From NCBI GenBank assembly GCA_964372275.1, contig CAYJRR010000047.1, positions 1 to 32,145 of the forward strand: a stretch of 32,145 bases of DNA. Reading direction: 5' to 3'. Shown in pieces: positions 1 through 26,006 of this stretch. This stretch comes from an uncultured bacterium (lineage in GTDB: Bacteria > CAYJRR01). Position 1 is the stretch's first letter. Every line of letters begins with the position of its first letter. The notes beneath the pieces were generated by a model, which worked only from the letters and a program-made list of their open reading frames with translations, had not been told where the DNA came from and made no database searches. The position numbers and the translations under genes are program-made.

Positions 1-6
1 TATAAC

Positions 7-39
7 ACACTCGTTCCCCCCCCGACGCCCTTCCGATCT
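7..39 (+). other. Illumina TruSeq adapter remnant (technical artefact)
   Basis: Bases 7-39 (acactcgttccccccccgacgcccttccgatct) match ACACTCTTTCCCTACACGACGCTCTTCCGATCT at 28/33 positions without gaps, including the terminal CTTCCGATCT. Confidence 0.9.
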
Positions 40-41
40 GC

Positions 42-1481
42 CCCACCGGCGCGGTCGGGCCCGACGGCGTCGCCTGCGTCGGCGTCGATCCCGCCGGCGA
101 TCCGACCTGCTCGTCGAGTGACCCCGACCTTTCCCTCGTCGCCTTCGTCGAGGCGGCGAGCGAGCCGACCTCCTGGGCCAGCGTCGTCGGCGCCGACGCC
201 GCGACCCGGCTCGTGAACCTGGAGATCGTTCCCTCCTCGCAGTCGGGGTCGGCGATCCTCGTGCCGCGCACCATGGCGGAGGCGCCGATCGCGCTGCGGC
301 CGGCGCACGACGTCCAGAGCGGCGACTACCTCTCGCCGATCTTCGAGACCGGCGGCCTGCTGCACGCGTCGCTCGACGGGTCGGCGCAGTCGCCTCCCGG
401 TGAAGCGGGGGAGGTGGTCGTCTCCACGGCGGCGGACGCAGGGAAGTTCTGGGTCGTGGTCGACGAGCCGGCCGGCCCGCACCACCTCGTCCGGGGCGGC
501 GGGAGCGCCGGGTCGCCGGTGCTGGTCCGGTTCGCGCGGCCTCCCGGGAGCGCGCGCGTCGCGCAGGATCCGTCGTCGGGCGATCTCTGGACCGGCGATC
601 TGTTCGCGCGCGCCGTCTTCCGGGTGACGCCGTCCGGAGCGCGGGCCGACGTCTTCACCGAGGTGCGACCCGGCACCGGCGAGTTCCCGGAGCCGCTCGG
701 CCCGGTGTGGCAGGTGATCCCCGACCACGAGACCGGCCGCGTCTGGATCCTGCTCGGCGACTACGCGCGGGCGGAGCGGCTGCTGGTCGCCGATCCGGCC
801 GACCGGGGAGGGGTCGGACCGGTGCGGTCCAGCGACTTCGTCGACCTGACCATGGGCGGCGCCGAGACGATGGTGATCGCGGGTTTCCAGCCCCGCCCGT
901 CGAACGAGCCGGGTCGCCTGGTCGGGCTGTCGATCGACGAGGCCGACGGATCGGCGCGAATCCGGACCTTCTCCACCGACACCGACGACCGATGGGCGAT
1001 CGTCGAGGGTCCCGGGTACGGGCCGTGGTCGGTGTCCGGAGGGGCGGAGGACCTTTCGCTGGCGGTCGATCCGCACGACGGCGGGATCTGTGTCGCATCG
1101 CCGTCGGACACCTTCTCGGTGGTGGTGAAGAGGTTCGACGCCGATCTGCTCCCTTCGCCCGAATATTCGATCGGCGGCACGGTCGCGGTCCGTGCGTTGG
1201 CGGCGGCCGGCGGCGATTGCTGGGTCGGCGTCGGTGTCGGTTCGACCGAGTCGAAGGTGGCCGTGGTCCGCGCCGGTCTCGGTCCGATCGTTTCGGATCC
1301 ACTCGGAGGATCGGTCGCCGCGGTGGCGCCGCTCGCCGTGCCGCCGTCGCAAGGCGCTCCGGGCGAGGCATGGGCCACCGTCGACTCCGCCTTGGTCCAC
1401 CTCCGGCTCATCGCCCCGACCGGCCCGCTCGAGATCGGCGATCGCACGGAGATCGCGCCCGATCTCTCGCTCACTCAATAG
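42..1481 (+). CDS. 5'-truncated hypothetical protein, probably an extracellular beta-propeller (NHL/YVTN-like)
   Basis: The frame of ORF 213..1481 stays open back to the adapter junction (PTGAVGPDGVACVGVDPAGDPTC...). Blade-like repeats: VAQDPSSGDLWTGD, IPDHETGRVWIL, LAVDPHDGGICVA. Confidence 0.65.
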   Translation, partial: PTGAVGPDGVACVGVDPAGDPTCSSSDPDLSLVAFVEAASEPTSWASVVGADAATRLVNLEIVPSSQSGSAILVPRTMAEAPIALRPAHDVQSGDYLSPIFETGGLLHASLDGSAQSPPGEAGEVVVSTAADAGKFWVVVDEPAGPHHLVRGGGSAGSPVLVRFARPPGSARVAQDPSSGDLWTGDLFARAVFRVTPSGARADVFTEVRPGTGEFPEPLGPVWQVIPDHETGRVWILLGDYARAERLLVADPADRGGVGPVRSSDFVDLTMGGAETMVIAGFQPRPSNEPGRLVGLSIDEADGSARIRTFSTDTDDRWAIVEGPGYGPWSVSGGAEDLSLAVDPHDGGICVASPSDTFSVVVKRFDADLLPSPEYSIGGTVAVRALAAAGGDCWVGVGVGSTESKVAVVRAGLGPIVSDPLGGSVAAVAPLAVPPSQGAPGEAWATVDSALVHLRLIAPTGPLEIGDRTEIAPDLSLTQ

Positions 1482-1507
1482 CGCGCGCCGCCCTCGCCGG
1501 GGATTCG

Positions 1508-3058
1508 TTAGGGCGTTTGCGCGAGCACCTCGGCGGCGGCACGCTCGCCCGACTGGAGCGCCCCTTCGATGTAGCCGGTCCATTCGGTCGCCGTCTCGGT
1601 GGAGGCCCAGTGGATCCGTCCCTCCGGGCGGCGGAGCGCAGGCCCAAGGGAGGTCCAGACCCCGGGTGGGAAGTAGCCGAGGAAACAGCCGCGCGACCAC
1701 TCCTCGTCGGCCCAGGAGTGCTCCACGAAACGGGTCGGCGCTTCGGCCTTCGGTCCGAACAGCCGCGCGTATTCGGCGAGGACGGTCCGCCGGCGCTCTT
1801 CCGGAGGCAGCCGCCGCGCCTCTTCCGCGGCGCGCCCGACGCAGAAGCCGAGAAGGATTCCCGGCTTTCCGCCGGGGGGCGAGTTGTCGAACGTCGCGAA
1901 GACCGGGCCGTGCGTGGAGACCATCTGGCCGTTCAAGCCGTCGGCGCGCCAGAACGCCTCCGGATAGATCGTCATCGACTTGATCACCGAGCCCATCGGC
2001 ATCGACTGGGTCAGCTGATCGCGGTCGGCGGAGAGGACCGGCCGGTAGTCGATGCGGCCGGCGAGCGCGGGGGGGACGGCGACGATCGCCCGCGTGGCGG
2101 CGATCGTGGCCCCCGTTGCCGCGCGGACCACGACGCCGGCCACGTCCTGCGAGATCGACGCCACCGGTTGCGACAGGTGGATCGACGGGCCGATCGGCTC
2201 GGCGTAGCGGCGCATGAGCTCCCCCATCCCCCGCTCGAGGCGCTCCTGCTGGGCGCCGTTCTTCACCGCCAGCAGCGGGTCGAGGCCGCCGGCGGCACGG
2301 ATGAAGAAGAGCGCGTGGAGGAGCGAAACGCGCGCCGGGTCGGCCGCGAGCAACATCTCCAGTCCCCCCGAAAGGAGCGCCCTGGCGTCCGAGAAACGAA
2401 CGCTGCGCGAGAGCCACGTCGCGAGCGTCGTGGCGTCGAGCGTGCGCGCGCCGCGCGCCGTCCACGGCGTCTCCGGGTCGACGGCGCGGGCGAGGCGATC
2501 GAGCTTCGACATCGAGCTCCCCAGGCTCATCAGGGAGAGGATCCCGAGCTTGGGGATGGTGCCGGCGTAGGCCCGGCGGCGGCCGCGCATCTCCAGCAGC
2601 GCCTTCCCCTCGTCGTAGGTGGGGACGGTGGCGAGCCCAAGCTCCTTCGTCAGGCGCGTGATGCGTCGCTGCGTCGGCCCCAGGTACTGACCACCGACGT
2701 CGAGCGGCAGTCCGTCGAACGTCTCGGTGCAGGTGCGCCCGCCGATGCGGTCGCGCGCTTCGAGCACCGCCACGCGGCGGCCGGCGCCGGAGAGGATCCG
2801 CGCCGCGGCCAGCCCCGACGCGCCGGCGCCGACCACGACGACGTCGACGCGCTCGGGCAGCTCCCGGCCGGACGGCGCGATCGGCGGGACCGCCGTCGAC
2901 GCCGGTTCGGCGCGCGCGATTCCGGCGAGGAGATCCCAGGCGATCGGCGCGGCGGCGGCGGAAAGTGCGCGCGCGAGGAATACCCGGCGATCGACCGCCG
3001 ACGTGCGGTCGCGGGCGGGGTGTCGATGCCGGGCGGTGGGCGCTTTCTTCCTGCTCAT
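1508..3058 (-). CDS. Tat-exported flavin monoamine oxidase family protein
   Basis: ATG at 3058 overlaps the upstream TGA (ATGA). Twin-arginine signal DRRVFL...IARA. FAD-binding DVVVVGAGASGLAAA...LEARDRIGGR and DVGGQYLG. MAO-like C-terminus SRGCF...RIHWASTETATEWTGYIEGALQSGERAA. Confidence 0.92.
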   Translation of the reverse strand: MSRKKAPTARHRHPARDRTSAVDRRVFLARALSAAAAPIAWDLLAGIARAEPASTAVPPIAPSGRELPERVDVVVVGAGASGLAAARILSGAGRRVAVLEARDRIGGRTCTETFDGLPLDVGGQYLGPTQRRITRLTKELGLATVPTYDEGKALLEMRGRRRAYAGTIPKLGILSLMSLGSSMSKLDRLARAVDPETPWTARGARTLDATTLATWLSRSVRFSDARALLSGGLEMLLAADPARVSLLHALFFIRAAGGLDPLLAVKNGAQQERLERGMGELMRRYAEPIGPSIHLSQPVASISQDVAGVVVRAATGATIAATRAIVAVPPALAGRIDYRPVLSADRDQLTQSMPMGSVIKSMTIYPEAFWRADGLNGQMVSTHGPVFATFDNSPPGGKPGILLGFCVGRAAEEARRLPPEERRRTVLAEYARLFGPKAEAPTRFVEHSWADEEWSRGCFLGYFPPGVWTSLGPALRRPEGRIHWASTETATEWTGYIEGALQSGERAAAEVLAQTP

Positions 3059-5478
3059 GGGAGCCTCCGTGCGCGGATCCGCGTGGAGCCGTCGCGGTCG
3101 TCCTCGAAGAGCACCACCGCGCCGCCGCCGTCCGGCCGCGCGGCGAGCCGGGGTCGGGACTGCGAGACGGCCGCCGTCCCGGAGTCGTCGGCGCGCGCCG
3201 GCGTCGGATCGCCGTCGAGGGAGGAGAACGACAGCGCCGGCTTCGACGGTCCGGTGTCCTGGAAGACGACCACACGCCCCGACGCCGTCGCCGCGATCGA
3301 CGGGCGGAAGCGGCTGGCGAAGGCGCCGGTCTCGGCGCCGCCGGGGATGACGGGATCGAGGATCCAGGCGCCGCCGCCGGACGGGATCGTCGCGGAACGG
3401 ACGTCGGCGTGTCCCCGCCGCGCGCGCACCTCCTCCCACACGACGCTCACCTCGTCGCCGGTGGCGAGGACCGACGGATCGGACGCCAGCACCTCCACGC
3501 CGTTTCCGGAGGGGGAGACCGGCGCCGCGGCGCCGAAGGCGAACACGCCTCCCGTGCCGATCGCCGCCCAGACCGACCAATCGCGCGCGCGGTAGTCGAT
3601 CCAGGCGATCGCCGGGCCGGCGGGACCGAACGCCAGCGACGGCTGGACCTGCGACCCCTCGGGCCGCGACGTCTCGGCGTTCGACGGGTCGACGCGCAGA
3701 CTCTGGGCCCACGAGATCCCGCCGTCGGTGGAGACCGACGCGCGGACCTTCGGGGCCCAGGCACCCTCGCGGAAGTCGCACCAGGCGACGGCCAGGCGCA
3801 ACGACGTCCCCTGGAACGCGATCGACGGCATCCACTGCGTGGCGGTCACCGCCTCCACGTCGACCGCCGGCGCGAAGGAGGTGCCGCCGTCGAGCGAGGT
3901 CGCGACCCGGACGCGGTCCGACTCGCCGTCCTCCTGCCAGGCGAGAGCCACTCTCCCCGACGCGCCGGCGGCGATCGACGGCAATCGCTGGGCCGCCGTT
4001 CCCGTGCCGTCGACCTCGACCGACGCCGACCAGGTCGCGCCGGCGTCGTCGCTCGTCGCGAACCGGATCCGGGCGGTCCCGCTTCGCGTGTCGGTCCAGG
4101 CCGCGTAGAGCCGGCCCCCCGCGTCGTAGGCGGCGGTGGGGGACGACTGGTCCCCGCTCTCGGCCGGCGCGACCGCGGCGCTTTGGTTCGCCGCCGATTC
4201 GACGGCGATCGAGTCACGGCGAAGCGCGAGATCGGCGCCGATCACGGCGTCGGCGTATCGACCTTCGTCGGGATCCCCCGATCCGGCGAGAAGCGCCTCG
4301 CCCTGCTCGCGGAGGAGGGCGCGACGCTCCTCGAGCGAAAGGCTCGGGTCGTCGATCCCCGGATCGGGATGGGCCCAGGGGCCGATCGAACGCCAACCGG
4401 TCGATTCGAGGCTGCCCACGAATCCCGATGGCGCGTCGTCGGGGGAGGCCTTCACCGTGACCCACGGTTGGCCGTCGAACGCCTGGTCGAACAGGTTCCC
4501 GGCGAGCATCGGCGCGACGGTGGCGACGATCCCTCGATACTTCTGGTTCGCCGACCATCCGGACGCGAGGATCGCGTCCGGCTCCCAGACCCCGGGCATC
4601 TCCTCGATCGTCCACCCGCTCCACGCCTCCGGCTGCGCGAAGATCTCGGTCCCGAGCGTCTCGAGTCGTTGGGTGAACGGCGCGTAGAAGGCGTCACGCG
4701 AGATCGCCACACCGATCTTCGCGAACGGCGTCTCCAGGAGCGGCATCCGGTCGAGGCGTGCGCGCGACAGGTCGAGGATCTGTTCCTCCGGATCGGTGAG
4801 GTAGACCTTGTCGACCCGGCCGGCGAGCGCGCCGTCGGGGCCGTAGAGGAGCGCGGTGTTGTAGACCTCCGAGTCGTCCGCCACCCACGCCCCGTCGCCG
4901 CCGTCGAGGTCGGGGTCGGCGAGGAGCGCGACGAGCGCGGGGTCGGTCGTCCGGGTGGCGTAGGGGAGGTTCGCCCCGGTGATCACCCACGCCCCCGTCT
5001 CGAGGGCGATCCCGCCGAACGTCTCGTCCATCGCGCGGCGGGCCGGGTCGCCGAGCGCGAGCGTCAGCGCGCGCGCCGCCGAGATCGACGGGTCGCGGTC
5101 GAGATAGAACTGCGCCGCTCCGGACCACTGTCCGTAGATGTTGTAGAAGGCGACCTCGGAGTCCGTCTGTTGGCGCGCGTCGGATCCGCGCGTTCCCAGG
5201 AACCACGCCAGGAGCCCGGCGTCCTCGGGGAAGACGATCAGGTTGGGCCGGTCGTTCGCCAGGCAGGGTTCGATCTCGCCGAGATGCCGCCGCCACGAGC
5301 GCCGGAAGCTTCCGTAGGTCTCGGCGTCGTCGAGCGTGAAGCGGTGCACGACGGCGAAGACGCGAACGTCCCCGTCCCCCGAGAACGGGAGTTCGCAGCG
5401 AGCCTTCCGGCCGCCGCCGTCGCAGGCGGCGAGCGCCATGGCCGAAACGACGAGGGCGACCGATCGAAGGAGTTTCAT
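3055..5478 (-). CDS. Lipoprotein: nitrilase/carbon-nitrogen hydrolase domain (E-K-S triad) fused to a BNR/Asp-box beta-propeller
   Basis: Start MKLLRSVALVVSAMALAAC with lipobox LAAC. Nitrilase motifs LIVFPED, YNTALLYGPDG...DKVYL and GVAISRD. Asp-boxes SDDAGATW, SLDGGTSF and STDGGISW. Confidence 0.85.
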   Translation of the reverse strand: MKLLRSVALVVSAMALAACDGGGRKARCELPFSGDGDVRVFAVVHRFTLDDAETYGSFRRSWRRHLGEIEPCLANDRPNLIVFPEDAGLLAWFLGTRGSDARQQTDSEVAFYNIYGQWSGAAQFYLDRDPSISAARALTLALGDPARRAMDETFGGIALETGAWVITGANLPYATRTTDPALVALLADPDLDGGDGAWVADDSEVYNTALLYGPDGALAGRVDKVYLTDPEEQILDLSRARLDRMPLLETPFAKIGVAISRDAFYAPFTQRLETLGTEIFAQPEAWSGWTIEEMPGVWEPDAILASGWSANQKYRGIVATVAPMLAGNLFDQAFDGQPWVTVKASPDDAPSGFVGSLESTGWRSIGPWAHPDPGIDDPSLSLEERRALLREQGEALLAGSGDPDEGRYADAVIGADLALRRDSIAVESAANQSAAVAPAESGDQSSPTAAYDAGGRLYAAWTDTRSGTARIRFATSDDAGATWSASVEVDGTGTAAQRLPSIAAGASGRVALAWQEDGESDRVRVATSLDGGTSFAPAVDVEAVTATQWMPSIAFQGTSLRLAVAWCDFREGAWAPKVRASVSTDGGISWAQSLRVDPSNAETSRPEGSQVQPSLAFGPAGPAIAWIDYRARDWSVWAAIGTGGVFAFGAAAPVSPSGNGVEVLASDPSVLATGDEVSVVWEEVRARRGHADVRSATIPSGGGAWILDPVIPGGAETGAFASRFRPSIAATASGRVVVFQDTGPSKPALSFSSLDGDPTPARADDSGTAAVSQSRPRLAARPDGGGAVVLFEDDRDGSTRIRARRLP

Positions 5479-5524
5479 GGAGAGCTCCGGAAACGCGTAC
5501 CGATACGCGCCTCGCGCGGGTCCG

Positions 5525-6952
5525 TCAAAGCGGGGAATCGGTCGCACGTGGGACGTAGAGTACCGGTCGTTCGTTCCCCACCCGTTCCGGACACGCCGTT
5601 CGCACCGGGACGTATCCCTCGATCTCCAGCGGGTGGAAGAGAAGCAGCGCCGCGACCCGACCGTCACGCAGCCGCCGCCGCAGCGCATCACGCACGTCGG
5701 GCGGGCCGGAAAGGTACATCCAGAGATCGCTGAACCAGAGGGGCCGGGCCGCGTCATAGGCGACCGTCGGGTATTGGGTGGCGATCGGGTCCGCGGGCGG
5801 CACTCGGCGGGCGATCTCGTCCACCATGCACGGCTGCCACGTCGACATCGCGGATGCGTGACGCCGCTGCGCCAGGAGCTGCGGCCGTCCTTCGGCCGCG
5901 ACGTCGAGCAGCAGCAGCGACGCGACGAGACCGACCGCCACCCCCTTCTGACGCTCGCCGCCTCGCAACGCCACCTCCAGGCCGAGTGCCGCCACCCAGG
6001 CCAGGGCCACGGTCGATTCGGTGAAGTGGTTCACGCTCGCCCCCACGCGGCCGGCGGTGATCGCGTTGAGTGCGACCGAAAACGCCAGGTAGAGGAGCGG
6101 AAGGCGTCGCCGTTCGGATCGGTCGGCGACGGCGAACGACGCGCAGACGACCGCCGCCCACCACGACGGCCGCGACACGTTCACCAGGATCAGCGCCAGC
6201 GCGTGGCCGGGACGATACGGGGCCCCCGCGTGCACGCGGAGCGTGTAGAGGAGGTCGATCCCCGTTCCGGGATCGAGGACGGCCGCCAGCGCGGCCGCTC
6301 CGAGGCCGGCGGTTGCCACGAACGCGGCGAGGCCTTTCCACTCCCGGCGGGCGGCGAGCCACAGCACGGCGGTCGCCGGTCCGGCCACCAGGCTCGGCTT
6401 GACCAGGAGTGCGGCCAGCGCGAGCGCGCCACCGGCCGCGCCGCGCCGGACGGTGATCCGCTCCGGGGCGACCTGGAGCAGCGCGCCGAACGCGAACAGG
6501 GCGCCGACCAGGTCAGGACGGAGGATCCCGAGCCAGCGGGAAACGGCCGGCAGGGTGAGGAACAGGCACGCGCCGACCCAGGCGGCCACCGGTCTCGCGC
6601 CACGCTCGCGACCCGCGCGATAGATCGTTCCGGCGATCGCGAGCCCCGACACGGCGGACAGCGCCCTCGCCGGCCCGAATCCCGGACCGAACGCGCGGAA
6701 CAATCCCGCGATGCCGGCGTAGAAGAGAAGCCCGTAGGCGGCGAAGAGGTAGGGGGGCGTGAGCGCGGCCGACGGTCCGAAGATCGGTTCTCCGGCCGCG
6801 AGCGCCATCGCCGGCGGGAACGCCACGCCTTCCGAGCGGCCGAGGTCGAACGGCGCCGTGATCGATCCGATCGCCTGGAGCAGCACCGTCCCCACCGCGA
6901 GCGAGGACGGAACGACCAGCGCGATTCGAAGGCGGCGAACGGAGCGGGACAC
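5525..6952 (-). CDS. Polytopic membrane glycosyltransferase, GT-C fold (ArnT/GT39/GT87-like)
   Basis: Many hydrophobic segments, an acidic first loop (FDLGRSEG) followed by PPYLFAAYGLLFY and ARALS, then RPD and KPS motifs typical of ArnT/PMT-like proteins. GTG start. Confidence 0.7.
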   Translation of the reverse strand: MSRSVRRLRIALVVPSSLAVGTVLLQAIGSITAPFDLGRSEGVAFPPAMALAAGEPIFGPSAALTPPYLFAAYGLLFYAGIAGLFRAFGPGFGPARALSAVSGLAIAGTIYRAGRERGARPVAAWVGACLFLTLPAVSRWLGILRPDLVGALFAFGALLQVAPERITVRRGAAGGALALAALLVKPSLVAGPATAVLWLAARREWKGLAAFVATAGLGAAALAAVLDPGTGIDLLYTLRVHAGAPYRPGHALALILVNVSRPSWWAAVVCASFAVADRSERRRLPLLYLAFSVALNAITAGRVGASVNHFTESTVALAWVAALGLEVALRGGERQKGVAVGLVASLLLLDVAAEGRPQLLAQRRHASAMSTWQPCMVDEIARRVPPADPIATQYPTVAYDAARPLWFSDLWMYLSGPPDVRDALRRRLRDGRVAALLLFHPLEIEGYVPVRTACPERVGNERPVLYVPRATDSPL

Positions 6953-7101
6953 CCGGTGACGCCGATGATAGCGGAACGCCCGGCGAGCCGCCGGTGCCGC
7001 CGCGCGCGCGGCATGATCGCGAAGCGCTTGCCCGCGAACGCGCGGCGCGGTAGCAACCTGTTTCGGCGTGCCCTTTGCGGGGCGCCGAAGCCGGAGGTTC
7101 C

Positions 7102-8391
7102 ATGGCCGCCCGAAGAGTCGCCATCGTCGATGGAGTCCGAACGCCGTTCGCCCGCGCGTTCGGCGTCTACAAGAAGCTGCCGGCGGCCGAGCTGGGACGG
7201 ATGGCCGCCACCGAGCTCCTGAATCGCACCGAGCTCGATCCGGAGGAGGTCGACAACGTGGTCTTCGGCTGCACGCTCGCGCCGACGAGCGGTCCGAACG
7301 TGGCGCGCGAGGTGCAGTTCCGCACCGGGATCCGCCGATCGGCGGCCGCCCACACCGTGCAGATGTACTGCGCGTCCGGCGCGCGCGCGATCGTCGACGG
7401 ATGCCACGAGATCTTGAGCGGCGACGCCGACGTGGTGGTCGCGGGCGGGGTCGATTCGACCTCGTCGATGCGGGCGCTGTTCTCCGAGCCGCTCACCGAC
7501 GCCCTGCAGAAGGCCTCCAAGGCCAAGACATTGGGAAGCCGCGTCGCCGCCTTCAAGGGGATCCGTCCCAAGCACCTGGCGCCGGTCGTCCCCGGCCTCG
7601 ACGAGCCGACCACCGGGCTCACCATGGGGCAGAGCGCCGACCGTCTGGCGAAGGAGGCGGGCATCTCCCGCCACGACCAGGACGAGTGGGCGCTGACCTC
7701 CCACCGGCGCGCGGCCAAGGCGACGGCGGAAGGCCGGCTGAAGAAGGAGATCGTGGCGGCGGTGGTGCCGCCGAAGTTCGATCAACCGCTGGAGAGCGAC
7801 ACCGACATCCGCGCCGACGGCTCGATGGAGAAGCTGGCGGGCTTGAAGCCGGTGTTCGACCGGCGCTACGGCACGGTGACGGCGGGGAACGCCAGCCCCC
7901 TGACCGATGGCGGCGCGGCGGTGCTCTTGATGAGCGACGAGAAGGCGAAGGCGCTGGGATACCGGCCCAAGGGCTACTTCCGGGCCTACGGGCAGGCGGG
8001 GCTCGACCTGGCGAAGGAGCCGCTGCTGATGGGACCGGCCTACGCCACGCCGATCGCCCTCTCCAAGGCGGGGATGAAGCTCTCCGACATCGACTACATC
8101 GAGATGCACGAGGCGTTCGCCGCGTCGGTGTTGGCGGCGATCCGCGCCCTGGAGTCGCCCCGCTTCGCCGAGGAGAAGCTGGGCCGCGCCGGCGCGGTCG
8201 GGAAGATCGATCTCGAGGCGCTCAACGCCAACGGCGGCTCGATCGCGTTGGGACATCCCTTCGGCGCGACCGGGGCGCGGCTGGTGATGACGCTGTTGAA
8301 CGAAATGATTCGTCGGAAGGTGTCGACCGGCATGGCGACGATGTGCGCCGCGGGTGGGCTGGGCTTGAGCGTCATCGTGGAGCGGGAGTGA
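7102..8391 (+). CDS. fadI: Acetyl-CoA C-acyltransferase (3-ketoacyl-CoA thiolase), FadI/TFE-beta type
   Basis: GGAGG just before ATG 7102. Motifs GVRTPF, MYCASG, TAGNASPLTDGG, MHEAFA (HEAF variant of FadI/TFE-beta), GHPFGATG and TMCAAGG. Confidence 0.93.
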   Translation: MAARRVAIVDGVRTPFARAFGVYKKLPAAELGRMAATELLNRTELDPEEVDNVVFGCTLAPTSGPNVAREVQFRTGIRRSAAAHTVQMYCASGARAIVDGCHEILSGDADVVVAGGVDSTSSMRALFSEPLTDALQKASKAKTLGSRVAAFKGIRPKHLAPVVPGLDEPTTGLTMGQSADRLAKEAGISRHDQDEWALTSHRRAAKATAEGRLKKEIVAAVVPPKFDQPLESDTDIRADGSMEKLAGLKPVFDRRYGTVTAGNASPLTDGGAAVLLMSDEKAKALGYRPKGYFRAYGQAGLDLAKEPLLMGPAYATPIALSKAGMKLSDIDYIEMHEAFAASVLAAIRALESPRFAEEKLGRAGAVGKIDLEALNANGGSIALGHPFGATGARLVMTLLNEMIRRKVSTGMATMCAAGGLGLSVIVERE

Positions 8392-8393
8392 AC

Positions 8394-10559
8394 ATGGCGG
8401 CCAGGAAGGACACGAAACCCCCGGAGTCGAACGACGAGCGGACGGCCGGCGAGGTCGCCACGATGGCGATCCAGGAGGGGGTGGCGACGATCACCCTCGA
8501 CCTCCCCGGCAAGAAGCTCAACACCCTTTCCAGCCGCCTGTTCGGGTTCTTCGAGCGTGCGGTGGCGGAGCTCGGAAGGAACAAGGGTCTGAAAGCCGTC
8601 GTCCTGATCTCGGGGAAGCCGGACAACTTCGTCGCCGGCGCCGACATCGACGAGCTCAAGGGCCTGACCGCGCGACACGAGATCCTGGAGATGATCGAGC
8701 GCGCGCACAAGCTGCTCGGAAGCTTCGAGGCGCTTCCGGTGCCCAAGGTCGCGGCGATCCACGGCGCGGCGCTCGGCGGAGGCCTCGAGCTGGCGCTCTG
8801 CTGCGGCTACCGGATCGCCACCGAGTCGAAGTCGACCAAGATCGGCCTGCCGGAAGTGAACCTCGGGCTGATCCCGGGCGCCGGCGGAACGCAACGGCTG
8901 CCTCGCCTGGTGGGGCTGACCGCCGCGCTCGACCTGATCCTCACCGGCAAGCAGCTCGACGGCCGCCGCGCGAAGAAGATCGGACTGGTCGACGAGGTGG
9001 TGCATCCCGCCGACCTTGGGCCCCGCGCGCGGGCGGCGGCGCTGGAGCTCGCCGCCGGGACCTTGCGCGCCGAGAGGCCGGGGCGCGGGATCGCGGGGCT
9101 CCTGCTGGAGAAGACGCCCGCGCGACGCGTCGCCTTCCGGCAGGCGCGCCAGCAGGTGCAGGAGAAGTCGGGAGGGCACTACCCGGCTCCGTTCAAGGCG
9201 ATCGAGGTGCTCGAGCGCACCGCCGGGATGACGCTGGAGGACGGCTTGCGGGAGGAGGCGTTGGCCTTCGCCGACCTCGTCGTCACCCCGGTCGCCAAGA
9301 GTCTGATGACGATCTTCTTCCTCCAGAACGACGTGCAGAAGGAGAAGCACGGCGATGCCCCTCCGATGGAGGTCAGGAAGGTCGGCGTGCTCGGCGCCGG
9401 ACTGATGGGGGCCGGGATCGGACAGGTATTGGCGCAGAAGGGATTCACCGTCCGCTTCAAGGACGTCGACCTTCCGGCTCTGGGCCGCGGCTACAAGTAC
9501 GCCTTCGATCTTTTCCAATCCCAGGTGGATCGCCGGCGGATGACGCCGGTCGAGCGCGACCTCGCCATGTCGCGCCTCTCCGGGGGCACCGACCACACCG
9601 GCTTCCGGCGCGCGGAGGTGGTGATCGAGGCGGTCTTCGAGGACCTGGAGGTGAAGCGCAAGGTGCTGGCCGAGACCGAGGCGGCGACCTCCGATCGCTG
9701 CATCTTCGCCTCGAACACCTCCAGCCTGCCGATCACCGACATCGCCAAGGGGTCCAGGCGGCCGGAACGCGTCATCGGGATGCACTTCTTCTCGCCGGTG
9801 CACAAGATGCCGCTCATCGAGGTGATCCGCACCAAGAAGACGGACGACGAGACGGTGGCGACGATCGTCGATCTCGGCCGCAAGATGGGGAAGACGGTGA
9901 TCGTGGTCAACGATGGCGTCGGTTTCTTCACCACCCGCGTGCTCGGTCCGTTCATGAGCGAGGCCGCCTTCTGCCTGCAGGAGGGGGCTTCGATCGAGGA
10001 GATCGACGCGGCGTTGACCCGGTACGGCTTCCCGGTCGGTCCGATGACGCTGCTCGACGAGGTCGGCATCGACGTCGGGCAGAAGGTCGGCAAGATCCTC
10101 CACGACGCCTTCGGCGACCGCCTCGCGCCCCCCTCGGTGATGGCGAAGGTGATCGAGGACGGCCGGAAGGGAAGGAAGAACGGCCGCGGCTTCTACACCT
10201 ACACCGACGGCAAGAAGGGCCCGGTCGACGGCACGATCTACCCGCTGGTCGGGTGGTCGCACAAACCGATCCCCGCGGGCGAGATCGCCGACCGGCTCTG
10301 GCTGCAGATGCTGGGCGAAACGGTCCGTTGCATGGAGGAGGAGATCGTCACCTCCCCGCGCGACATCGACATCGGGACGATCTTCGGGTTCGGCTTCCCC
10401 CCCTTCCGCGGCGGCATCCTCCGCGCCGCCGACACGATGGGGATCGGCGCGGTCGTCCGCCGGCTGGGCGAGTTCGAGAAACGGTACGGCCGCCGCTTCG
10501 CTCCGCCCCGCAAGCTGCTGGAGATGGAGCGCAAGGGCGAGCGCTTCTTCCCCGCCTAG
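8394..10559 (+). CDS. fadJ: Fatty acid oxidation complex alpha subunit (enoyl-CoA hydratase / 3-hydroxyacyl-CoA dehydrogenase)
   Basis: ATG 2 nt after the thiolase stop. Crotonase motifs ISGKPDNFVAGADI, GGGLELAL and LPEVNLGLIPGAGGTQRLPR. HACD motifs GVLGAGLMGAGI, IEAVFED, ASNTSSLPI and GMHFFSPV. C-terminal GFPPFRGG. Confidence 0.93.
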   Translation: MAARKDTKPPESNDERTAGEVATMAIQEGVATITLDLPGKKLNTLSSRLFGFFERAVAELGRNKGLKAVVLISGKPDNFVAGADIDELKGLTARHEILEMIERAHKLLGSFEALPVPKVAAIHGAALGGGLELALCCGYRIATESKSTKIGLPEVNLGLIPGAGGTQRLPRLVGLTAALDLILTGKQLDGRRAKKIGLVDEVVHPADLGPRARAAALELAAGTLRAERPGRGIAGLLLEKTPARRVAFRQARQQVQEKSGGHYPAPFKAIEVLERTAGMTLEDGLREEALAFADLVVTPVAKSLMTIFFLQNDVQKEKHGDAPPMEVRKVGVLGAGLMGAGIGQVLAQKGFTVRFKDVDLPALGRGYKYAFDLFQSQVDRRRMTPVERDLAMSRLSGGTDHTGFRRAEVVIEAVFEDLEVKRKVLAETEAATSDRCIFASNTSSLPITDIAKGSRRPERVIGMHFFSPVHKMPLIEVIRTKKTDDETVATIVDLGRKMGKTVIVVNDGVGFFTTRVLGPFMSEAAFCLQEGASIEEIDAALTRYGFPVGPMTLLDEVGIDVGQKVGKILHDAFGDRLAPPSVMAKVIEDGRKGRKNGRGFYTYTDGKKGPVDGTIYPLVGWSHKPIPAGEIADRLWLQMLGETVRCMEEEIVTSPRDIDIGTIFGFGFPPFRGGILRAADTMGIGAVVRRLGEFEKRYGRRFAPPRKLLEMERKGERFFPA

Positions 10560-10569
10560 AGGTCGACCG

Positions 10570-11043
10570 ATGATCGTACTCGTCGCGGCATTGTCGTGGA
10601 CGATCGCCGCTTCGGCCGCGGCGTCGCCTCGGCCCAAGGCGGCGCTGGCCGACCTCGCCTGGCTCGAGGGCTGCTGGTCGGACGGCGCGTACGAGGAGTG
10701 CTGGAACGCCCCGGCGGGGGGCGCCATGCAGGCGTTCGGCCGCCGCGTGAAGGGGGCGGAGACGGTCGAGCGGGAGGCGATCGAGATTCGCGCGGCGGCG
10801 GACGGATCGCTCACCTACGTCGCGCTCCTCCTCGACCCGGGGCTCGCGGTGAAGCAGGCGGCGACCGTCTTCGCGCTGGTGTCGGCGTCGAAGGACCGCT
10901 GGGTTTTCGAGAACGCGTCGCACGACTTCCCGCAGCGGATCGTCTACGAGCGCAAGGGGGACCGGCTGAACGTCCGCATCGAGTCGATCGACGGCGCCAA
11001 GACGATCGATTTTCCGCTGGCACGGACCCGGCGACCCCGCTGA
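10570..11043 (+). CDS. Secreted DUF6265-like protein
   Basis: Signal peptide, LAWLEGCW...EECW..PAGGAM and FENASHDFPQRIVY. Family assignment is from memory. Confidence 0.75.
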   Translation: MIVLVAALSWTIAASAAASPRPKAALADLAWLEGCWSDGAYEECWNAPAGGAMQAFGRRVKGAETVEREAIEIRAAADGSLTYVALLLDPGLAVKQAATVFALVSASKDRWVFENASHDFPQRIVYERKGDRLNVRIESIDGAKTIDFPLARTRRPR

Positions 11044-11066
11044 GCGCGCGGCGATACAATGGCGTC

Positions 11067-11762
11067 GTGCGCGTACGCCACCCTGCCTTCGCCGCCGTGG
11101 TGCTCGGGGTCGCGGCCCTGTTCGTCGTGGCGCCGCTCTTGCCGGGACCGGCGCGCGCGCAGGACCCGTTCGAGATCTGGACCGACGCGACGGTCCTCGG
11201 GGCGCTCAACCGGGCCGAGCAGGCCCTGGAGGAGGAGCTGGGGTCACGGCCGGCGAAGCGGCCGCGCGTCCTCCTTTCTTCACGCGAGTTCTTCGAAGGG
11301 ATTTCCTACAAGGCGATCGAGCGGATCGCGGGGAAGCGCGGCCCGGAGGACGAGCGCGCGATCGCCGCCCAAGCCAAGGTGCTGGCCCGCTCGGCGTTCG
11401 GCTACTACGAATTCGGCAAGAACACCGTCCACCTCCTGCCCGAAAACTTCCACGCCTTCGCCCGGAACCGGAACAGACCGGCCTTCCTCGGAGAGGAGTT
11501 CCTGACGATCGTGCTCGCGCACGAGCTGACGCACGCGTGGGACAGCCAGCGGTGGACCACCCTGGCCCGCGCGGAGCAGACGAAGGACGAGGAGTACAAG
11601 ATCTGGTACCCGCTGATCGAGGGGCACGCCATGTGGGTGACCAAGCGAGTGTCGACGCGCCTCGGGCTCTCCAAGGAGTACCAGTCCTTCGTCGACGCCT
11701 CGTTCAACCCGCCACCATGCTCCCGTCGACCGCCACCACGCGGACGCTCTCGAACTTCGTGA
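11067..11762 (+). pseudogene. Secreted zincin-like (HExxH) protein, N-terminal part, apparently frameshifted near 11710
   Basis: GTG 11067, signal peptide ending PARA|QD, and AHELTHAWD...LIEGHAMWV. Codon usage collapses after aac ccg (cca cca tgc tcc cgt cga). Confidence 0.6.
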
Positions 11763-12172
11763 AAGGGGCGGCCCGCGTCGCGCGGGATCCGAAGTCGGAA
11801 ACCCTGGCCTTCTGCACCACGGCGCAGATGACCGATGCCGCCAACGCCAAGGACCTGTTCGACGCGATCCGCGAGGGGGAACGGCTCGAGGACGAGTCGA
11901 TCGCGAAGCTTTCCGGTGGACGCGCCGAGAAGCCGGTCCGGGGACTGTTGCGACCGGGCAGCCCGATGGCGCACCAGCGGACGATCCGCTTCCTGGGCGT
12001 CGGGCGAAAGCTGGTCCCGGAGTTCACGGCGCTGTTCGCCGCCGGTCCGTACGTCGTGGAGTGCGCCCTGGTCGGCCGGAAGGTGCACGACGAGCACCTC
12101 GAGGGACTGATCACGCGACTGCGCGGCGACCTGGCGAACGCCCCTGCGGCCGCCGAATCGTCGGCCCGTTAG
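11708..12172 (+). pseudogene. C-terminal part of the interrupted HExxH protein, or a separate small hypothetical protein from ATG 11717
   Basis: GC3-rich codons resume in the -1 frame exactly where the upstream frame degrades (ccc gcc acc atg ctc ccg tcg acc). No Shine-Dalgarno before ATG 11717. Confidence 0.5.
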
Positions 12173-13626
12173 CGCCCTTCGACGCGGGCTTCGCCCCCGA
12201 GGTCGGGGCGAAAGATCACCTGACCGCCCGCAATCTCCATCACCGACCATTCGCCGACGCGGACGCTGACCGAATCGAACGGCTGGCTCGCGAGGCTCTC
12301 CAGGGCGCTGGCTCGGCGCGCGCGCTCCGCGGCGTCGACCGCCGACCACTGCTGCGGAATCCAGACCACCAGGTCACGCATCCCACCCGCCACCGTCAGC
12401 TCGGCGCGCTCGACGAGCTCCGCGGCGACCCCCAACGAGGAGGGCGGGACCTCCTCGATGCGGTACTCCGTCGGTCGCTGGTGAGCCAGGAGCGCACCGC
12501 CCCCGAGGAGGACGAGCGCCGCGAATCCGTAGTAGACGATCGCGCCCGTGGATCGGCGCGCGCGCGGCACGGTGCCGGGCGCCGCTTCGGCGTCCGTCGC
12601 CGAAAGCTTGTTGCGGAGCGGGCGGGGGTCGAACCGGGCGGTTTCGGAGCCGGAGTCGGCGCGGGTGTCCCGAAACAGCTGCTGAATCCGCTGCTCCTCC
12701 TGCTGGATCCGCCGGAACGACGCCGTCCGTGCCGCACCGTCGGTGATCCGTTCCAGCAGGTTTCGAACCTCCACGTCGCAACGGACGGCGGCGTAGAGCA
12801 CCTCGGCCGACAGCAGGTCGTTCCGAAGCGAGCGTTTGAACGCGTAGAGATCTCCGTAGAGCCCCGCGTCGAACAACCCCTCCGGGCCCGCGAGCGCCGC
12901 GATCCGCTGGGCGCTCTCTTCGAGGCTCCTCGCGTCTTCGGCTCGCCGTTCCGGGCTCGACGAAGGGGCCGGAAGGATCGGCTCCAGTGCGGGCCTGACC
13001 TCGTCGAACGGCCGGAGCGCGAGTCGCCCGGTCGCGCCCCGGACCGACAGGGCGATTGCCATCAGGAGCTCGGTCCGCTCGGCACGCGCCCAGGAGTCGG
13101 CGGCGGTTCGCGCGAGAAGGCCTGCGGCGTACCAGGCGGTGACCTCGGGCAGCGCGAGGGTGTCCAGCCCCTCCCGGAACCGGTCGGCGGGGATCGACGC
13201 CTCGAGCGCCAGGACCGACGCCGTCGCCGTCTCCAGTGCCTGCTCCAAGGCGCCGATCGCATCGACCCGTCCGAGGTCCCCGGGCGGCATCGACGAGAGT
13301 CGCGCCGCCGCGGCGATGGCCGCGTCGCGCGAGGCCCTGGCGGCCGCGAGCCCGTCGGACTCCGGAAGCATCGCCGCGATCAGGTCGAGGCCGGCGACGC
13401 ATTCGAGGAACCGATTCCACGCGCTCGAGGCGCGCGCGACGAGGGCCGAATCGACCCCGGCGGGGAATGGCGCCGGGGCCGGCGGCACGGGGGTCGGAAC
13501 GACCGCCCGTCCGGCGCCGGCGGCGATTGCGCCCGGTGGGGGAGGTGCGGGATCCCCCTCCCCGATGATCTCCTCCATCGAGCGGGCGATCTCGTCGAGG
13601 GCGTTTCGGGACGAAGAGTCGCTCAC
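12169..13626 (-). CDS. Hypothetical helical protein with one late transmembrane segment
   Basis: 485-aa ORF starting 13 nt after the pilin stop. Pro-rich N-terminal linker, a coiled-coil-like stretch (RIQQEEQRIQQLF) and TM GAIVYYGFAALVLLGGGALLA. Confidence 0.7.
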   Translation of the reverse strand: MSDSSSRNALDEIARSMEEIIGEGDPAPPPPGAIAAGAGRAVVPTPVPPAPAPFPAGVDSALVARASSAWNRFLECVAGLDLIAAMLPESDGLAAARASRDAAIAAAARLSSMPPGDLGRVDAIGALEQALETATASVLALEASIPADRFREGLDTLALPEVTAWYAAGLLARTAADSWARAERTELLMAIALSVRGATGRLALRPFDEVRPALEPILPAPSSSPERRAEDARSLEESAQRIAALAGPEGLFDAGLYGDLYAFKRSLRNDLLSAEVLYAAVRCDVEVRNLLERITDGAARTASFRRIQQEEQRIQQLFRDTRADSGSETARFDPRPLRNKLSATDAEAAPGTVPRARRSTGAIVYYGFAALVLLGGGALLAHQRPTEYRIEEVPPSSLGVAAELVERAELTVAGGMRDLVVWIPQQWSAVDAAERARRASALESLASQPFDSVSVRVGEWSVMEIAGGQVIFRPDLGGEARVEGR

Positions 13627-17422: not shown

Positions 17423-18034
17423 CTATTCCGGGGCGATCTCGTCCGCCGCCTTCAGGATCTGCGAGGCGCAATCGGCGGGGAAGATCTGCACGCACTCGCT
17501 GAGCGGGAACCCTTCGAGCGAAAGGACGACCGGCAGGATGATGATCCGCGTATTCGTCGGGATCGCCTTCTCGATCTCCTTGGTCCAGGCCACCTTCAGG
17601 TGATCGGTGCTTTGCGAGACGCGGAGGTGTTTCCCGATCTGGTCGAAGGCGCGGTTCGCCGAGCCGCAGATCTGGTTGGCGATCTCCCGGAACTCGTCCA
17701 GCTCGCGCTCGTTCGGCGGGAACTTCCGCCGCTCCTCGAGCACCTCCTTGGGGAGCAGCACCACGCTTCCGATCATCGTCATCGCGTCGGCGTTCTTGAA
17801 GACGAAGCGGGTGGTGTAACGCAGCGGCCTTCCGGTCGGCACGCCGGCCTCGATCACCGTCGTGGCGGCGACCCCCGGCCCGCGGAAGGTCTTGATCACC
17901 GCGGCCTGCCCGTCGGCGAACGGCTTGGGCGCCATCTTCACCTTGATCTGCAGCAGCGCCTCGAGGTCGTTGGAGATCGCCTGGAAGGCGTCGCAGAACA
18001 GGAGCCAGAGCTGGGACTGGGCGTCGTCGCTCAT
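17423..18034 (-). CDS. CheC/CheX-like phosphatase-family protein
   Basis: ATG 18034 is 5 nt after the cheY stop. Contains an ExxN motif in ELDEFREIANQICGS. Last gene of the che operon. Confidence 0.65.
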   Translation of the reverse strand: MSDDAQSQLWLLFCDAFQAISNDLEALLQIKVKMAPKPFADGQAAVIKTFRGPGVAATTVIEAGVPTGRPLRYTTRFVFKNADAMTMIGSVVLLPKEVLEERRKFPPNERELDEFREIANQICGSANRAFDQIGKHLRVSQSTDHLKVAWTKEIEKAIPTNTRIIILPVVLSLEGFPLSECVQIFPADCASQILKAADEIAPE

Positions 18035-18039
18035 CGGTC

Positions 18040-18405
18040 CTAGGCCACGCCTTTCATGATCGGGCCGATCGTGCTCTTGAGCGTCTCCGGCGTGAACGGC
18101 TTGGTGAGGTATCCGGTCGCGCCGGCCTCCTGCGCCGTCGACATCTTGGCCTCGGTCGCCTCGGTGGTGATCATCACCAGCGGCGTCTTCAGCGACTTGC
18201 GCACTTCGCGGATGAAAGCCAGGCCGTCCATGTTCGGCATGTTCCAGTCGCAAAGGATCAGGTCGACGCGTTCCGCCGCAAGCTTCGCCAGCGCGTCGGC
18301 GCCGTCCTTGGCCTCGACGGCCGTCGCGTCGAATCCCGCCTGCCTCAACCCCCTCCGTAGCAAGCCGCGCATCAGCGCGGAGTCGTCGACGATCAGTACC
18401 TTCAT
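18040..18405 (-). CDS. cheY: CheY-like single-domain response regulator
   Basis: LIVDDS, CDWNMPNMDG, MITTE and YLTKPF; 121 aa. Confidence 0.9.
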   Translation of the reverse strand: MKVLIVDDSALMRGLLRRGLRQAGFDATAVEAKDGADALAKLAAERVDLILCDWNMPNMDGLAFIREVRKSLKTPLVMITTEATEAKMSTAQEAGATGYLTKPFTPETLKSTIGPIMKGVA

Positions 18406-18408
18406 GCG

Positions 18409-18885
18409 CTAGCCCTTCCGATGGTCCTTCCAACCGACGTGGATCGAAAACGGCTCCCCTTCGGCATCGAACACGCGCACCGCCGCTCCGGCGGGGGTCT
18501 TGCCCGCGGGGCTGGCCTCGACGACCGGGAGCGAGAGTCGCAACGAGAACCCCTCCTGCGCCAACGCGGCCTTGGCGCTTCCGGCGATCATGTTCGCGCA
18601 CTCCCCGACGCCGTCCCGCAGGTCGGAGGCCAACACCTCGCGCGGCTCGATCCCGGTGACCCGCGAGACGAAGGTGCGGGCCAGCCCCTCGCGCACCAGG
18701 ACCGCGACGTAGCCGTCCGCATCGCCGGTCATCCCGACGGTTGCCATCAGGTCGCCGGCGGGGGCCGGCGTCGTCGCGTCGACCGGCCGGACCTCGGTGT
18801 CGGCCATGGTGCGGAAGACCTCGACGGTCGCCTCGACGAAGGGGTCGAGTCGGGCGGCGCTCGCGTCGTCGCGTCGGAGAGTCAC
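18409..18885 (-). CDS. cheX: Chemotaxis phosphatase CheX
   Basis: DPFVEATVEVFRTMA, VGMTGD..G, DGVGECANMIAG (ExxN) and LSLP. Probable GTG start at 18885. Confidence 0.88.
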   Translation of the reverse strand: MTLRRDDASAARLDPFVEATVEVFRTMADTEVRPVDATTPAPAGDLMATVGMTGDADGYVAVLVREGLARTFVSRVTGIEPREVLASDLRDGVGECANMIAGSAKAALAQEGFSLRLSLPVVEASPAGKTPAGAAVRVFDAEGEPFSIHVGWKDHRKG

Positions 18886-18889
18886 GTCG

Positions 18890-19270: not shown

Positions 19271-19277
19271 GCGGTTC

Positions 19278-20695: not shown

Positions 20696-20714
20696 GCGGA
20701 GGGAACGACTACGT

Positions 20715-25985: not shown

Positions 25986-26006
25986 CGGCCCCGGCAGTAT
26001 ACGATG

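Follow-up and report, generated by a model that had tools for sequence, protein, structure and literature searches.

Outside the cytoplasm, the hydrolysis of an amide and the oxidation of the amine that it releases are joined in at least one described bacterial system. According to the excerpts available of the two reports concerned, Pseudomonas aeruginosa secretes a neutral ceramidase, CerN (PMC5150637), and needs a periplasmic oxidoreductase exported by the twin-arginine translocation (Tat) system, SphC, together with a cytochrome c, SphB, for sphingosine metabolism; SphC is there termed a flavin mononucleotide (FMN)-linked oxidoreductase (PMC11398299). The present analysis concerns a 32,145-nucleotide stretch of DNA from an uncultured bacterium (contig CAYJRR010000047.1; hereafter the window), in which the gene of a predicted lipoprotein from a diverged branch of the nitrilase superfamily (the hydrolase) runs, by a stop/start overlap, into the gene of a Tat-signal flavoprotein of the monoamine oxidase (MAO) family (the oxidase). 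The association of the two families is real but occasional, not a conserved operon. Its best reading, which we hold at slightly less than an even chance, is a functional extracytoplasmic pair in which the hydrolase would release an amine and the oxidase would then oxidize it. The likeness to CerN, SphC and SphB lies in the sequence of events, in which an N-acyl amide is hydrolyzed outside the cytoplasm to a fatty acid and sphingosine before a Tat-exported enzyme carries out a periplasmic oxidation. The hydrolase of that system, however, is a ceramidase (PF04734) and not a nitrilase fold, and its cytochrome c partner is absent at the window. The original prediction did not recognize the proposed route as a described pathway. 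This holds for the pairing of these particular families, which was not found in the literature searched, whereas the same logic, built from other families, is contained in the P. aeruginosa reports as far as the excerpts go.

Nitrilase domains typically span ~260-300 aa, compared with ~400 aa in the hydrolase of the window. Among eukaryotes, vanin and biotinidase are secreted amidases of the nitrilase fold with an added C-terminal domain, and the products of the amide that they split are an acid and an amine. The catalytic Cys is retained in vanins, for which, to our knowledge, no oxidase partner has been described. The vanin/pantetheinase structures 4cyf, 7slv and 9izl match a profile of the hydrolase family at only E about 0.6.

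On the oxidase side, the exported relatives that have been described include Tat-exported amine dehydrogenases such as NicA2 and Pnao, which belong to the same superfamily and share twin-arginine export with the protein of the window (PMC12224317). According to the available excerpt of this 2025 study, Tat-bearing amine oxidoreductases with a cytochrome c encoded beside them are dehydrogenases, and most of those that lack such a neighbor react rapidly with O2 (PMC12224317). The window differs from the NicA2/Pnao arrangement in having no adjacent cytochrome c gene.

The hydrolase and the oxidase

The window has a G+C content of ~71%, and open frames therefore abound in it; genes were placed by third-position G+C together with family searches. 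Three consecutive genes on the minus strand, encoding a membrane protein (5525-6952), the lipoprotein hydrolase (3055-5478) and the flavoprotein oxidase (1508-3058), are followed in the list below by two divergent genes.

1508..3058, minus strand: Tat-signal MAO-family flavoprotein, 516 aa (Pfam PF01593, PDB matches, motif positions)
2909..3058, minus strand: N-terminal ~50 residues of the oxidase, predicted twin-arginine signal (DRRVFL, hydrophobic stretch, ARA/E; from the translation)
3055..3058, minus strand: ATGA shared by the hydrolase stop and the oxidase start, within CCATGAGC; the oxidase ATG has GGAGG 7 nt ahead of it
3055..5478, minus strand: predicted lipoprotein hydrolase, 807 aa, with signal and lipobox, diverged domain of predicted nitrilase fold and putative BNR-type propeller
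5422..5478, minus strand: signal peptide and lipobox (L16-A-A-C19) of the hydrolase (motif inspection)
4159..5391, minus strand: catalytic-type domain of the hydrolase, ~residues 30-440, with Glu85, Lys224, Glu231 and Ser260
4699..4701, minus strand: codon of Ser260, the residue that stands where the nitrilase superfamily has its nucleophile Cys (alignment to Nit2)
3058..4131, minus strand: C-terminal BNR/Asp-box repeat domain of the hydrolase, ~residues 450-807
5525..6952, minus strand: 475-aa multi-pass membrane protein, possibly of the GT-C/PMT_2 kind; the unit may begin with this gene
7102..8391, plus strand: fadI-like thiolase, divergent (NCBIfam PRK08963, 518.4 bits, cut-off 560)
8394..10559, plus strand: fadJ-like enoyl-CoA hydratase/3-hydroxyacyl-CoA dehydrogenase (NCBIfam NF008363, 859.3 bits, cut-off 869)

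Both genes are intact, and the overlap between them is present as the original prediction described it. On the minus strand the junction reads CGG AGG CTC CCA TGA, then ATG AGC AGG (fuller stretch, CGGAGGCTCCCATGAGC), the ATGA at 3058..3055 being common to the hydrolase stop and the oxidase start. The hydrolase starts at the ATG at 5478, which has GGAG 7 nt upstream and from whose Met1 its residues are counted here. A unitig of one public sequencing run (X1, 2963-3574) bridges the junction with zero differences; the assembly may itself stem from that run, so this agreement is not independent. A scan of 1300-7300 for promoters and terminators returned no sites.

The oxidase matches Pfam Amino_oxidase (PF01593) with 255.6 bits (E 1.6e-75; residues 81-512 against profile positions 2-443) and carries the dinucleotide-binding motif GAGASG at residues 77-82. 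Its best match in the PDB is 8p84, 'Monoamine oxidase', over the full length (E 5e-112), and full-length alignments also link it to MAO A and MAO B (about 1e-91 to 1e-88), putrescine oxidase (about 1e-80) and cyclohexylamine oxidase (5e-77). In contrast, the 'Amine oxidase' entries 5ttj, 7kho and 7c49, which we take to be NicA2-type enzymes, match weakly (about E 1e-17). When aligned with MAO A (1o5w, 2bxr), Cys458 falls on the Cys of 'SGGCY' ('wsrgCf' against 'ysggCy') and Tyr496 on the Tyr of 'WSGYMEGA' ('wtgYiega' against 'wsgYmega'); these are presumably the positions of the 8-alpha-S-cysteinyl FAD-linking Cys and of the aromatic-cage Tyr of MAO A/B, respectively.

Where the oxidase departs from these enzymes is its N-terminus, a 65-residue extension before GAGASG with D-R24-R25-V-F-L at residues 23-28, then the hydrophobic stretch ARALSAAAAPIAWDLLAGIA and ARA/E. 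This feature is confined to a minority of relatives: at least 35 residues precede the GxGxxG motif in 9 of the 119 best homologues, with an RR motif in all nine, and all 30 Myxococcota homologues start a few residues before GxGxxG and carry no Tat extension. In the oxidase tree described below, the protein of the window groups with nine metagenomic proteins, every one of them RR-bearing, including that of L089, whose contig is too short to judge. The oxidase is single-copy in its genome. By motif inspection, on which both the Tat and the lipoprotein assignments are based, the two proteins of the pair are predicted to be exported, as originally claimed, the hydrolase by its lipobox and the oxidase by its twin-arginine motif.

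No CxxCH motif occurs in any of the six frames of 1-12500, and hence no cytochrome c gene adjoins the pair. Taken together with the pattern in the available excerpt of PMC12224317, this leads to a reading of the protein as a periplasmic oxidase, which most likely would use O2 as acceptor and give H2O2.

The hydrolase begins with MKLLRSVALVVSAMALAAC, a predicted lipoprotein signal that ends in AMALAAC19 and contains the lipobox L16-A-A-C19. Homologues of similar length number 77, mostly from Myxococcota and at 30-53% identity, and 53 of them have a lipobox-like motif within their first 70 aa; some carry the source label 'predicted amidohydrolase'. The match to Pfam CN_hydrolase (PF00795) exceeds the cut-off (27.0 bits against 23.2; E 3.4e-6) and covers residues 173-315 only, and the same family is precomputed for 24 of the 77 homologues. 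With a profile built from 37 homologues, mouse Nit2 (2w1v) is matched at E 8.8e-7 over a region that takes in both the Lys and the nucleophile motif. In this alignment 'DKvyL' falls on 'RKiHL', placing Lys224 on the Nit2 Lys, and 'vgvaiSrDAf' on 'vGLGICYDMRF', so that Ser260 stands opposite the catalytic Cys. Glu85 and Glu231 are assumed to be the remaining catalytic residues from their motif positions (FPE and K+7). The four columns are strongly conserved among the 77 homologues, with Glu at position 85 in 75 (a gap in two), Lys at 224 and Glu at 231 in all 77, and, at position 260, Ser in 75, Cys in one and Gly in one. Judged from these alignments, the hydrolase is a diverged branch of the nitrilase superfamily, predicted to be exported, that keeps the Glu-Lys-Glu set and has Ser at the nucleophile position. 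It resembles Nit2 and the superfamily in its Pfam and profile matches and in this residue set; it differs from them in Ser260, in its predicted export and lipid anchor, and in its fusion to a putative propeller (to GDPD in some relatives).

In an exhaustive HMMER search with the catalytic part alone, 514 representative clusters matched at E<=1e-3, of which 291 also reached 1e-10 and 125 reached 1e-30. Among 151 sequences (the 150 best representatives plus the query), the nucleophile column holds Ser in 116, Cys in 17, Gly in 11 and another residue or a gap in seven, and conservation extends to 125 sequences for Glu85, 133 for Lys224 and 142 for Glu231. Most of the Cys forms have a single domain, a short length of 350-480 aa and a canonical 'IAICFDAF' motif. 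Of 13 tested, 12 match CN_hydrolase, 11 of them above the cut-off, which ties the whole group to the nitrilase superfamily. A tree of 135 catalytic domains brings most of the Cys forms together, with the forms that carry Gly or other residues clustered among proteins of 850-900 aa. Signal-like N-termini were seen in 11 of the 12 Cys-bearing relatives that have an N-terminus, so the entire branch would appear to be exported. The idea that the change from Cys to Ser was an adaptation to export was rejected on the same count. In a cluster of 850-910-aa relatives (P0250, P0255, P0264, P0267, P0293, P0299, P0302, P0314, P0320, P0333 and P0335), the nucleophile is replaced by Gly, Ala, Thr or Arg; judged from this position, these are likely catalytically dead offshoots.

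The C-terminal ~360 aa of the hydrolase contain three Asp boxes (476, 528, 583) and seven W-x-[DE] repeats spaced ~55 residues apart. Matches to BNR_2 (18.7 bits, cut-off 31.4) and BNR (23.5, cut-off 27) stay below threshold, PDB matches are limited to the Asp-box stretches, and PF13088 is precomputed for many of the homologues. On these features we take this part for a putative BNR-type propeller. A literature search returned no characterized member of the hydrolase family or of its Ser-for-Cys branch fused to a propeller or to GDPD.

Recurrence of the pairing

Related loci were retrieved with alignments, single-protein queries having given none. From the hydrolase side, 80 genome loci with relatives, extending up to 8 kb on each side and comprising 1.07 Mb and ~1000 genes, were searched with the proteins of the window; from the oxidase side, 80 metagenome loci were available, many of them short. 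A MAO homologue occurs in 2 of the 80 hydrolase loci (L054 and L061) and is directly adjacent to the hydrolase gene in both. In L054, from a metagenome-assembled genome (MAG) of Algiphilus, the oxidase gene precedes the hydrolase gene with a 7-nt overlap at the hydrolase start. L061 lies in a MAG of Actinomycetota. Here the hydrolase gene and that of a Tat oxidase (TRRTFLGG) diverge; directly downstream is an aldehyde dehydrogenase gene, beside the oxidase one for an MFS transporter, and ~2-4 kb further on come genes for a PaaA/PaaC-family protein and an enoyl-CoA hydratase.

Another two linked loci, L097 and L148, came from the 80 metagenomic oxidase loci. In both, the oxidase gene adjoins a gene whose product has, behind a GDPD domain (PF03009), a domain distantly related to that of the hydrolase (25-26% identity); these fusion proteins are signal-bearing, with a lipobox in L148. 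The nucleophile motif of these relatives, 'ATSLPAF', again has Ser. The oxidases of both loci are RR-bearing, and an ATGA overlap is present in L097. The fusions of GDPD to a Ser-type nitrilase-like domain are located at L148:3810-6236 and L097:8509-11244, and P0080, which has precomputed GDPD domains, is a further fusion of this kind. At L148, a glutathione peroxidase gene lies directly upstream of the GDPD fusion, and between fusion and oxidase is encoded a 180-aa protein that belongs to no Pfam family and contains ...HDLG... and ...GHH....

A search for longer oxidase relatives gave five proteins, among them P0351, P0352, P0353 and P0355. P0351 (988 aa) and P0352 (930 aa) combine a signal peptide, a Ser-type hydrolase-like domain ('GFATSLPAF'; BLASTP E 4e-12 against the hydrolase of the window), an internal RR motif and a MAO domain. 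The stretch between the two domains of P0351 resembles an out-of-frame translation. Whether these are true fusions, or neighboring genes that a frameshift or the gene caller has run together, each adds a further adjacency in the gene order of the window.

The pairing is thus met in at least seven places, with three hydrolase architectures (including the two GDPD fusions) and three gene orders. Of the five linked loci that comprise the window, L054, L061, L097 and L148, three have a stop/start overlap (the window, L054 and L097); the oxidase is Tat-type in four, and the hydrolase bears a signal in all five. A complete lack of synteny among homologues, which would have refuted the original prediction, is contradicted by 2 of 80 loci from either side, and adjacency of a hydrolase and an oxidase does recur (L054, L061, L097, L148, P0351 and P0352), although most homologues are not syntenic.

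Several figures bear on whether chance alone would produce this. Of 301 sampled Myxococcota genomes, 34 have a MAO homologue at E<=1e-90, as do 57 of the 401 from Actinomycetota, a frequency of a few per 100,000 genes. By our own rough arithmetic, ~0.05-0.2 MAO genes would be expected in the 80 hydrolase loci against the two seen (Poisson P ~0.001-0.02). The hydrolase family was found in none of 400 other Gammaproteobacteria searched and in 1 of 40 unrelated genomes (E 1e-58). It is rarer than MAO, and its presence in 2 of the 80 oxidase loci is therefore even less expected. At the same time, the hydrolase family mostly occurs without the oxidase, which makes the pairing an optional add-on.

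The phylogeny of the oxidase (254 sequences, FastTree, rooted on ceramidase-fused forms) gathers those of L061, L097, L148, P0351 and P0352 in one clade of 10 with a support of 0.91, in which five of the nine informative members are linked to a hydrolase. The oxidases of the window and of L054 are each placed elsewhere. At least three separate oxidase lineages are therefore linked, so the two families were either joined at least three times or kept together in patches since an old pairing.

Other neighbors of the hydrolase were also considered. A universal neighbor of the family was rejected, since clustering of the loci shows only lineage-specific synteny. Six of the 80 loci (L012, L015, L027, L037, L049 and L070), which come from Archangium, Myxococcaceae, Polyangiaceae and Actinomycetota, encode a signal-less FAD oxidoreductase of the GMC family no more than two genes away from the hydrolase; L015 and L037 also have an AAT/peptidase-C45-like gene. 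GMC oxidoreductases were rejected as periplasmic partners because their frames start just before GxGxxG and have no signal.

Function and substrate of the pair

If the pair is functional, hydrolase and oxidase would form a small co-translated unit acting outside the cytoplasm. The lipid-anchored hydrolase would cleave an acyl-N, or possibly an acyl-O, bond of a conjugate at the membrane or in the periplasm and so free a compound with a primary amine. Oxidation of this amine by the periplasmic flavoprotein would yield ammonia and either an aldehyde or a ketone, and O2 would most likely be reduced to H2O2.

As to the substrate, our guess is a lipid amide (ceramide-like or an N-acyl-amine lipid), a lipid ester or a lipid head group. 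Two of the longer oxidase relatives, P0353 (1245 aa) and P0355 (1159 aa), have an N-terminal MAO-family domain fused to a neutral/alkaline ceramidase (PF04734, ~135 bits). By analogy, they show an amine oxidase physically tied to what would be an N-acyl lipid amide hydrolase, following the same logic as the pair. Their architecture appears uncharacterized and suggests possible oxidation of sphingoid bases. Like the pair, these proteins join a MAO-family domain to an N-acyl-amide hydrolase; unlike it, they use a PF04734 hydrolase and have no signal peptide (the oxidase domain starts from residue 7-15), and their oxidase domains are 29-31% identical to the oxidase of the window. GDPD, fused to the hydrolase-like domain in L097 and L148, is a family that we take to be lipid head-group phosphodiesterases. 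Lipid-type genes also occur around the hydrolases, including a neutral ceramidase and a GMC oxidoreductase in L070, a phosphoesterase (PF04185) and an aldehyde dehydrogenase in L082, MlaE in L036, and alpha/beta hydrolases in L055, L065 and L088; L054 has a lipase, alpha/beta hydrolases, a P450 and an enoyl-CoA hydratase, and L148 an acyl-CoA dehydrogenase and a glutathione peroxidase. Overall, the neighbors at hydrolase loci are heterogeneous. An aromatic amine is an alternative, since the aldehyde dehydrogenase and paa genes of L061 recall the phenylethylamine route of Escherichia coli, which comprises a periplasmic amine oxidase, phenylacetaldehyde dehydrogenase and paa genes. The most specific proposal, which we consider unlikely as a whole, is that the exported Glu-Lys-Glu-Ser hydrolases are still active and form, with a Tat-exported and covalently flavinylated MAO, a periplasmic lipid-amide route that would be a counterpart of CerN/SphBC assembled from different folds.

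A number of observations weigh against a functional pair. Cys-to-Ser mutants of characterized nitrilase-superfamily enzymes are inactive or stall. The original reading of the hydrolase as an amidase is uncertain; the protein matches the nitrilase superfamily above the cut-off, but the defining nucleophile Cys is Ser here. The pairing is absent from 78 of the 80 hydrolase loci, among them those of all ~20 closest relatives, which belong to Myxococcaceae and Archangiaceae and are 43-52% identical. Conversely, the hydrolase is absent from 78 of the 80 metagenomic oxidase loci, many of which are short, from all 30 Myxococcota oxidase loci within 1.5 kb on each side, and from the 29 other Actinomycetota oxidase loci, L061 itself being the only one of the 30 fetched that has it. 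Even within the clade rich in linked oxidases, four members have no hydrolase within 8 kb and have unrelated neighbors, and one more lies on a contig that is too short. In L054 the hydrolase is signal-bearing and the oxidase has no recognizable signal peptide, so the two proteins there would sit in different compartments. The claims on L061 rest on genome G041, which is flagged as unpublished. Finally, the genomes searched include no close relative of the source genome in which conservation of the operon could be followed.

These absences also feed the explanation that the two exported proteins are simply co-located or co-expressed and share no common substrate, the recurrences reflecting a shuffling of exported-enzyme genes. 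A pairing found in ~2.5% of loci from either side, heterogeneous hydrolase neighborhoods and the quite different surroundings of the unlinked oxidases in the linked clade are what this would produce. The rarity of both families, set against their repeated meetings in several architectures and gene orders, argues otherwise, as do the stop/start overlaps in three loci and the low Poisson probability, and we regard mere co-location as unlikely, much as we do the complete lipid-amide route.

The pair might instead be coupled through an esterase or lipid deacylase, whose Ser nucleophile would deacylate a phospholipid-type substrate before a phosphodiesterase frees a head-group amine, such as ethanolamine, for the oxidase. 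The replacement of Cys by Ser would fit such a chemistry. So would the GDPD domains fused to the hydrolase-like domain in L148 and L097, both adjoining Tat oxidases, the GDPD domains of P0080, and the lipid-type neighbors in L054, L148, L082 and L036. The hydrolase of the window, however, has no GDPD domain and the window has no GDPD gene; moreover, the oxidase is most like enzymes acting on aromatic amines and diamines, and nothing bears on ethanolamine. We think this quite unlikely.

A comparably low standing is given to the extension of the pathway to the fadI- and fadJ-like genes, which the original prediction had tentatively linked to the pair and which would burn the acyl chain released by the hydrolase. 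The two genes are present and divergent as described, with ~150 bp between the starts. The FadI-like protein most likely starts at ATG 7102, with GGAGG at 7093-7097, and not at TTG 7075; the FadJ-like protein starts at ATG 8394 or at GTG 8388, the latter overlapping the fadI stop. Both matches are full-length and lie just under the NCBIfam equivalog cut-offs given above. Enoyl-CoA hydratase or acyl-CoA dehydrogenase genes do occur within ~6 kb in three of the four other linked loci (L054, L061 and L148), and FadJ-like matches were obtained in both linked hydrolase loci compared with 6 of the 78 unlinked ones. Yet such families are abundant in these genomes and the numbers are very small; the hydratase of L061 adjoins a PaaA/PaaC-family gene, and L097 has no such match. 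Furthermore, the FadJ of the window is the only full-length FadJ/FadB-type gene in its 4.6-Mb, 94.6%-complete genome, which suggests a housekeeping role. A contribution of fadI/fadJ to the pathway seems distinctly improbable.

It has also to be considered that the nitrilase-like domain is not a hydrolase at all, but a binding module, a pseudoenzyme or an Lnt-like acyl-transferase, with the BNR propeller as the working part. The loss of the defining Cys is in keeping with this, as are the 850-900-aa relatives with Gly, Ala, Thr or Arg (14 of 151), which have probably given up catalysis. Against it stands the near-invariance of Glu, Lys and Glu alongside Ser; the retention of Ser in 75 of 77 homologues, together with Glu-Lys-Glu conservation, points to selection on an active site. 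The propeller, for its part, gives only sub-threshold BNR matches confined to the Asp boxes, and propeller-less, GDPD-fused relatives are still paired with an oxidase. A domain other than a hydrolase therefore appears very unlikely. The same low rating applies to a flavoprotein that, like NicA2/Pnao, is a dehydrogenase passing electrons to a periplasmic carrier and not an H2O2-forming oxidase: its Tat signal is shared with cytochrome-c-dependent superfamily members, and one Tat-only enzyme in the available excerpt of PMC12224317 is slow with O2, but there is no CxxCH-containing frame within 1-12500, and the protein is closest to MAO A/B-type enzymes, placed far from the dehydrogenase clades of that excerpt.

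Should the functional pair be confirmed, it would provide the first activity for the hydrolase family of 514 representative clusters, show that a nitrilase fold is able to work with a Ser nucleophile, and represent a second, independently built combination of amide cleavage and amine oxidation outside the cytoplasm, with a bearing on the use or detoxification of lipid amines by soil bacteria and predators. Should the pairing prove not to be functional, the Ser-for-Cys clade would still caution against annotating such proteins as amidohydrolases.

Neighboring genes and source genome

The gene of the multi-pass membrane protein ends 46 nt before the hydrolase gene. Its product contains five strongly hydrophobic 19-mers and has no Pfam match even at E 10. 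Its language-model features show a likeness of 0.99 to clusters in which 22-58% of the members carry PMT_2, which we take to be a GT-C family. The original prediction of a GT-C gene upstream of the pair thus stands as far as a multi-pass membrane protein gene is concerned; in the face of no Pfam match, feature likeness to PMT_2 clusters makes GT-C membership a lead and not a demonstrated assignment. The protein was rejected as a conserved partner, because no homologue of it occurs in any of the 80 hydrolase loci.

The source genome (4.6 Mb) has no relative closer than 'same domain' among the genomes searched, and its hydrolase is most like Myxococcota proteins; the genome may represent a deep or poorly sampled lineage.

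Convergent with the oxidase gene, a coding-like frame of ~480 aa (33-1481, plus strand) ends 26 nt from the oxidase stop; it has no Pfam or NCBIfam family match, even at E 10. The rest of the window encodes a DUF6265 protein, a pilin-like protein, a poly(A)-polymerase-family gene, an acyl-AMP ligase fragment and a chemosensory cluster, for which no connection to the pair was seen. The chemosensory cluster, unrelated to the pair, extends over 17423-26000 on the minus strand and comprises response regulators, a CheX-like protein, CheR, CheB, a methyl-accepting chemotaxis protein (MCP), CheW and a CheA-type kinase.

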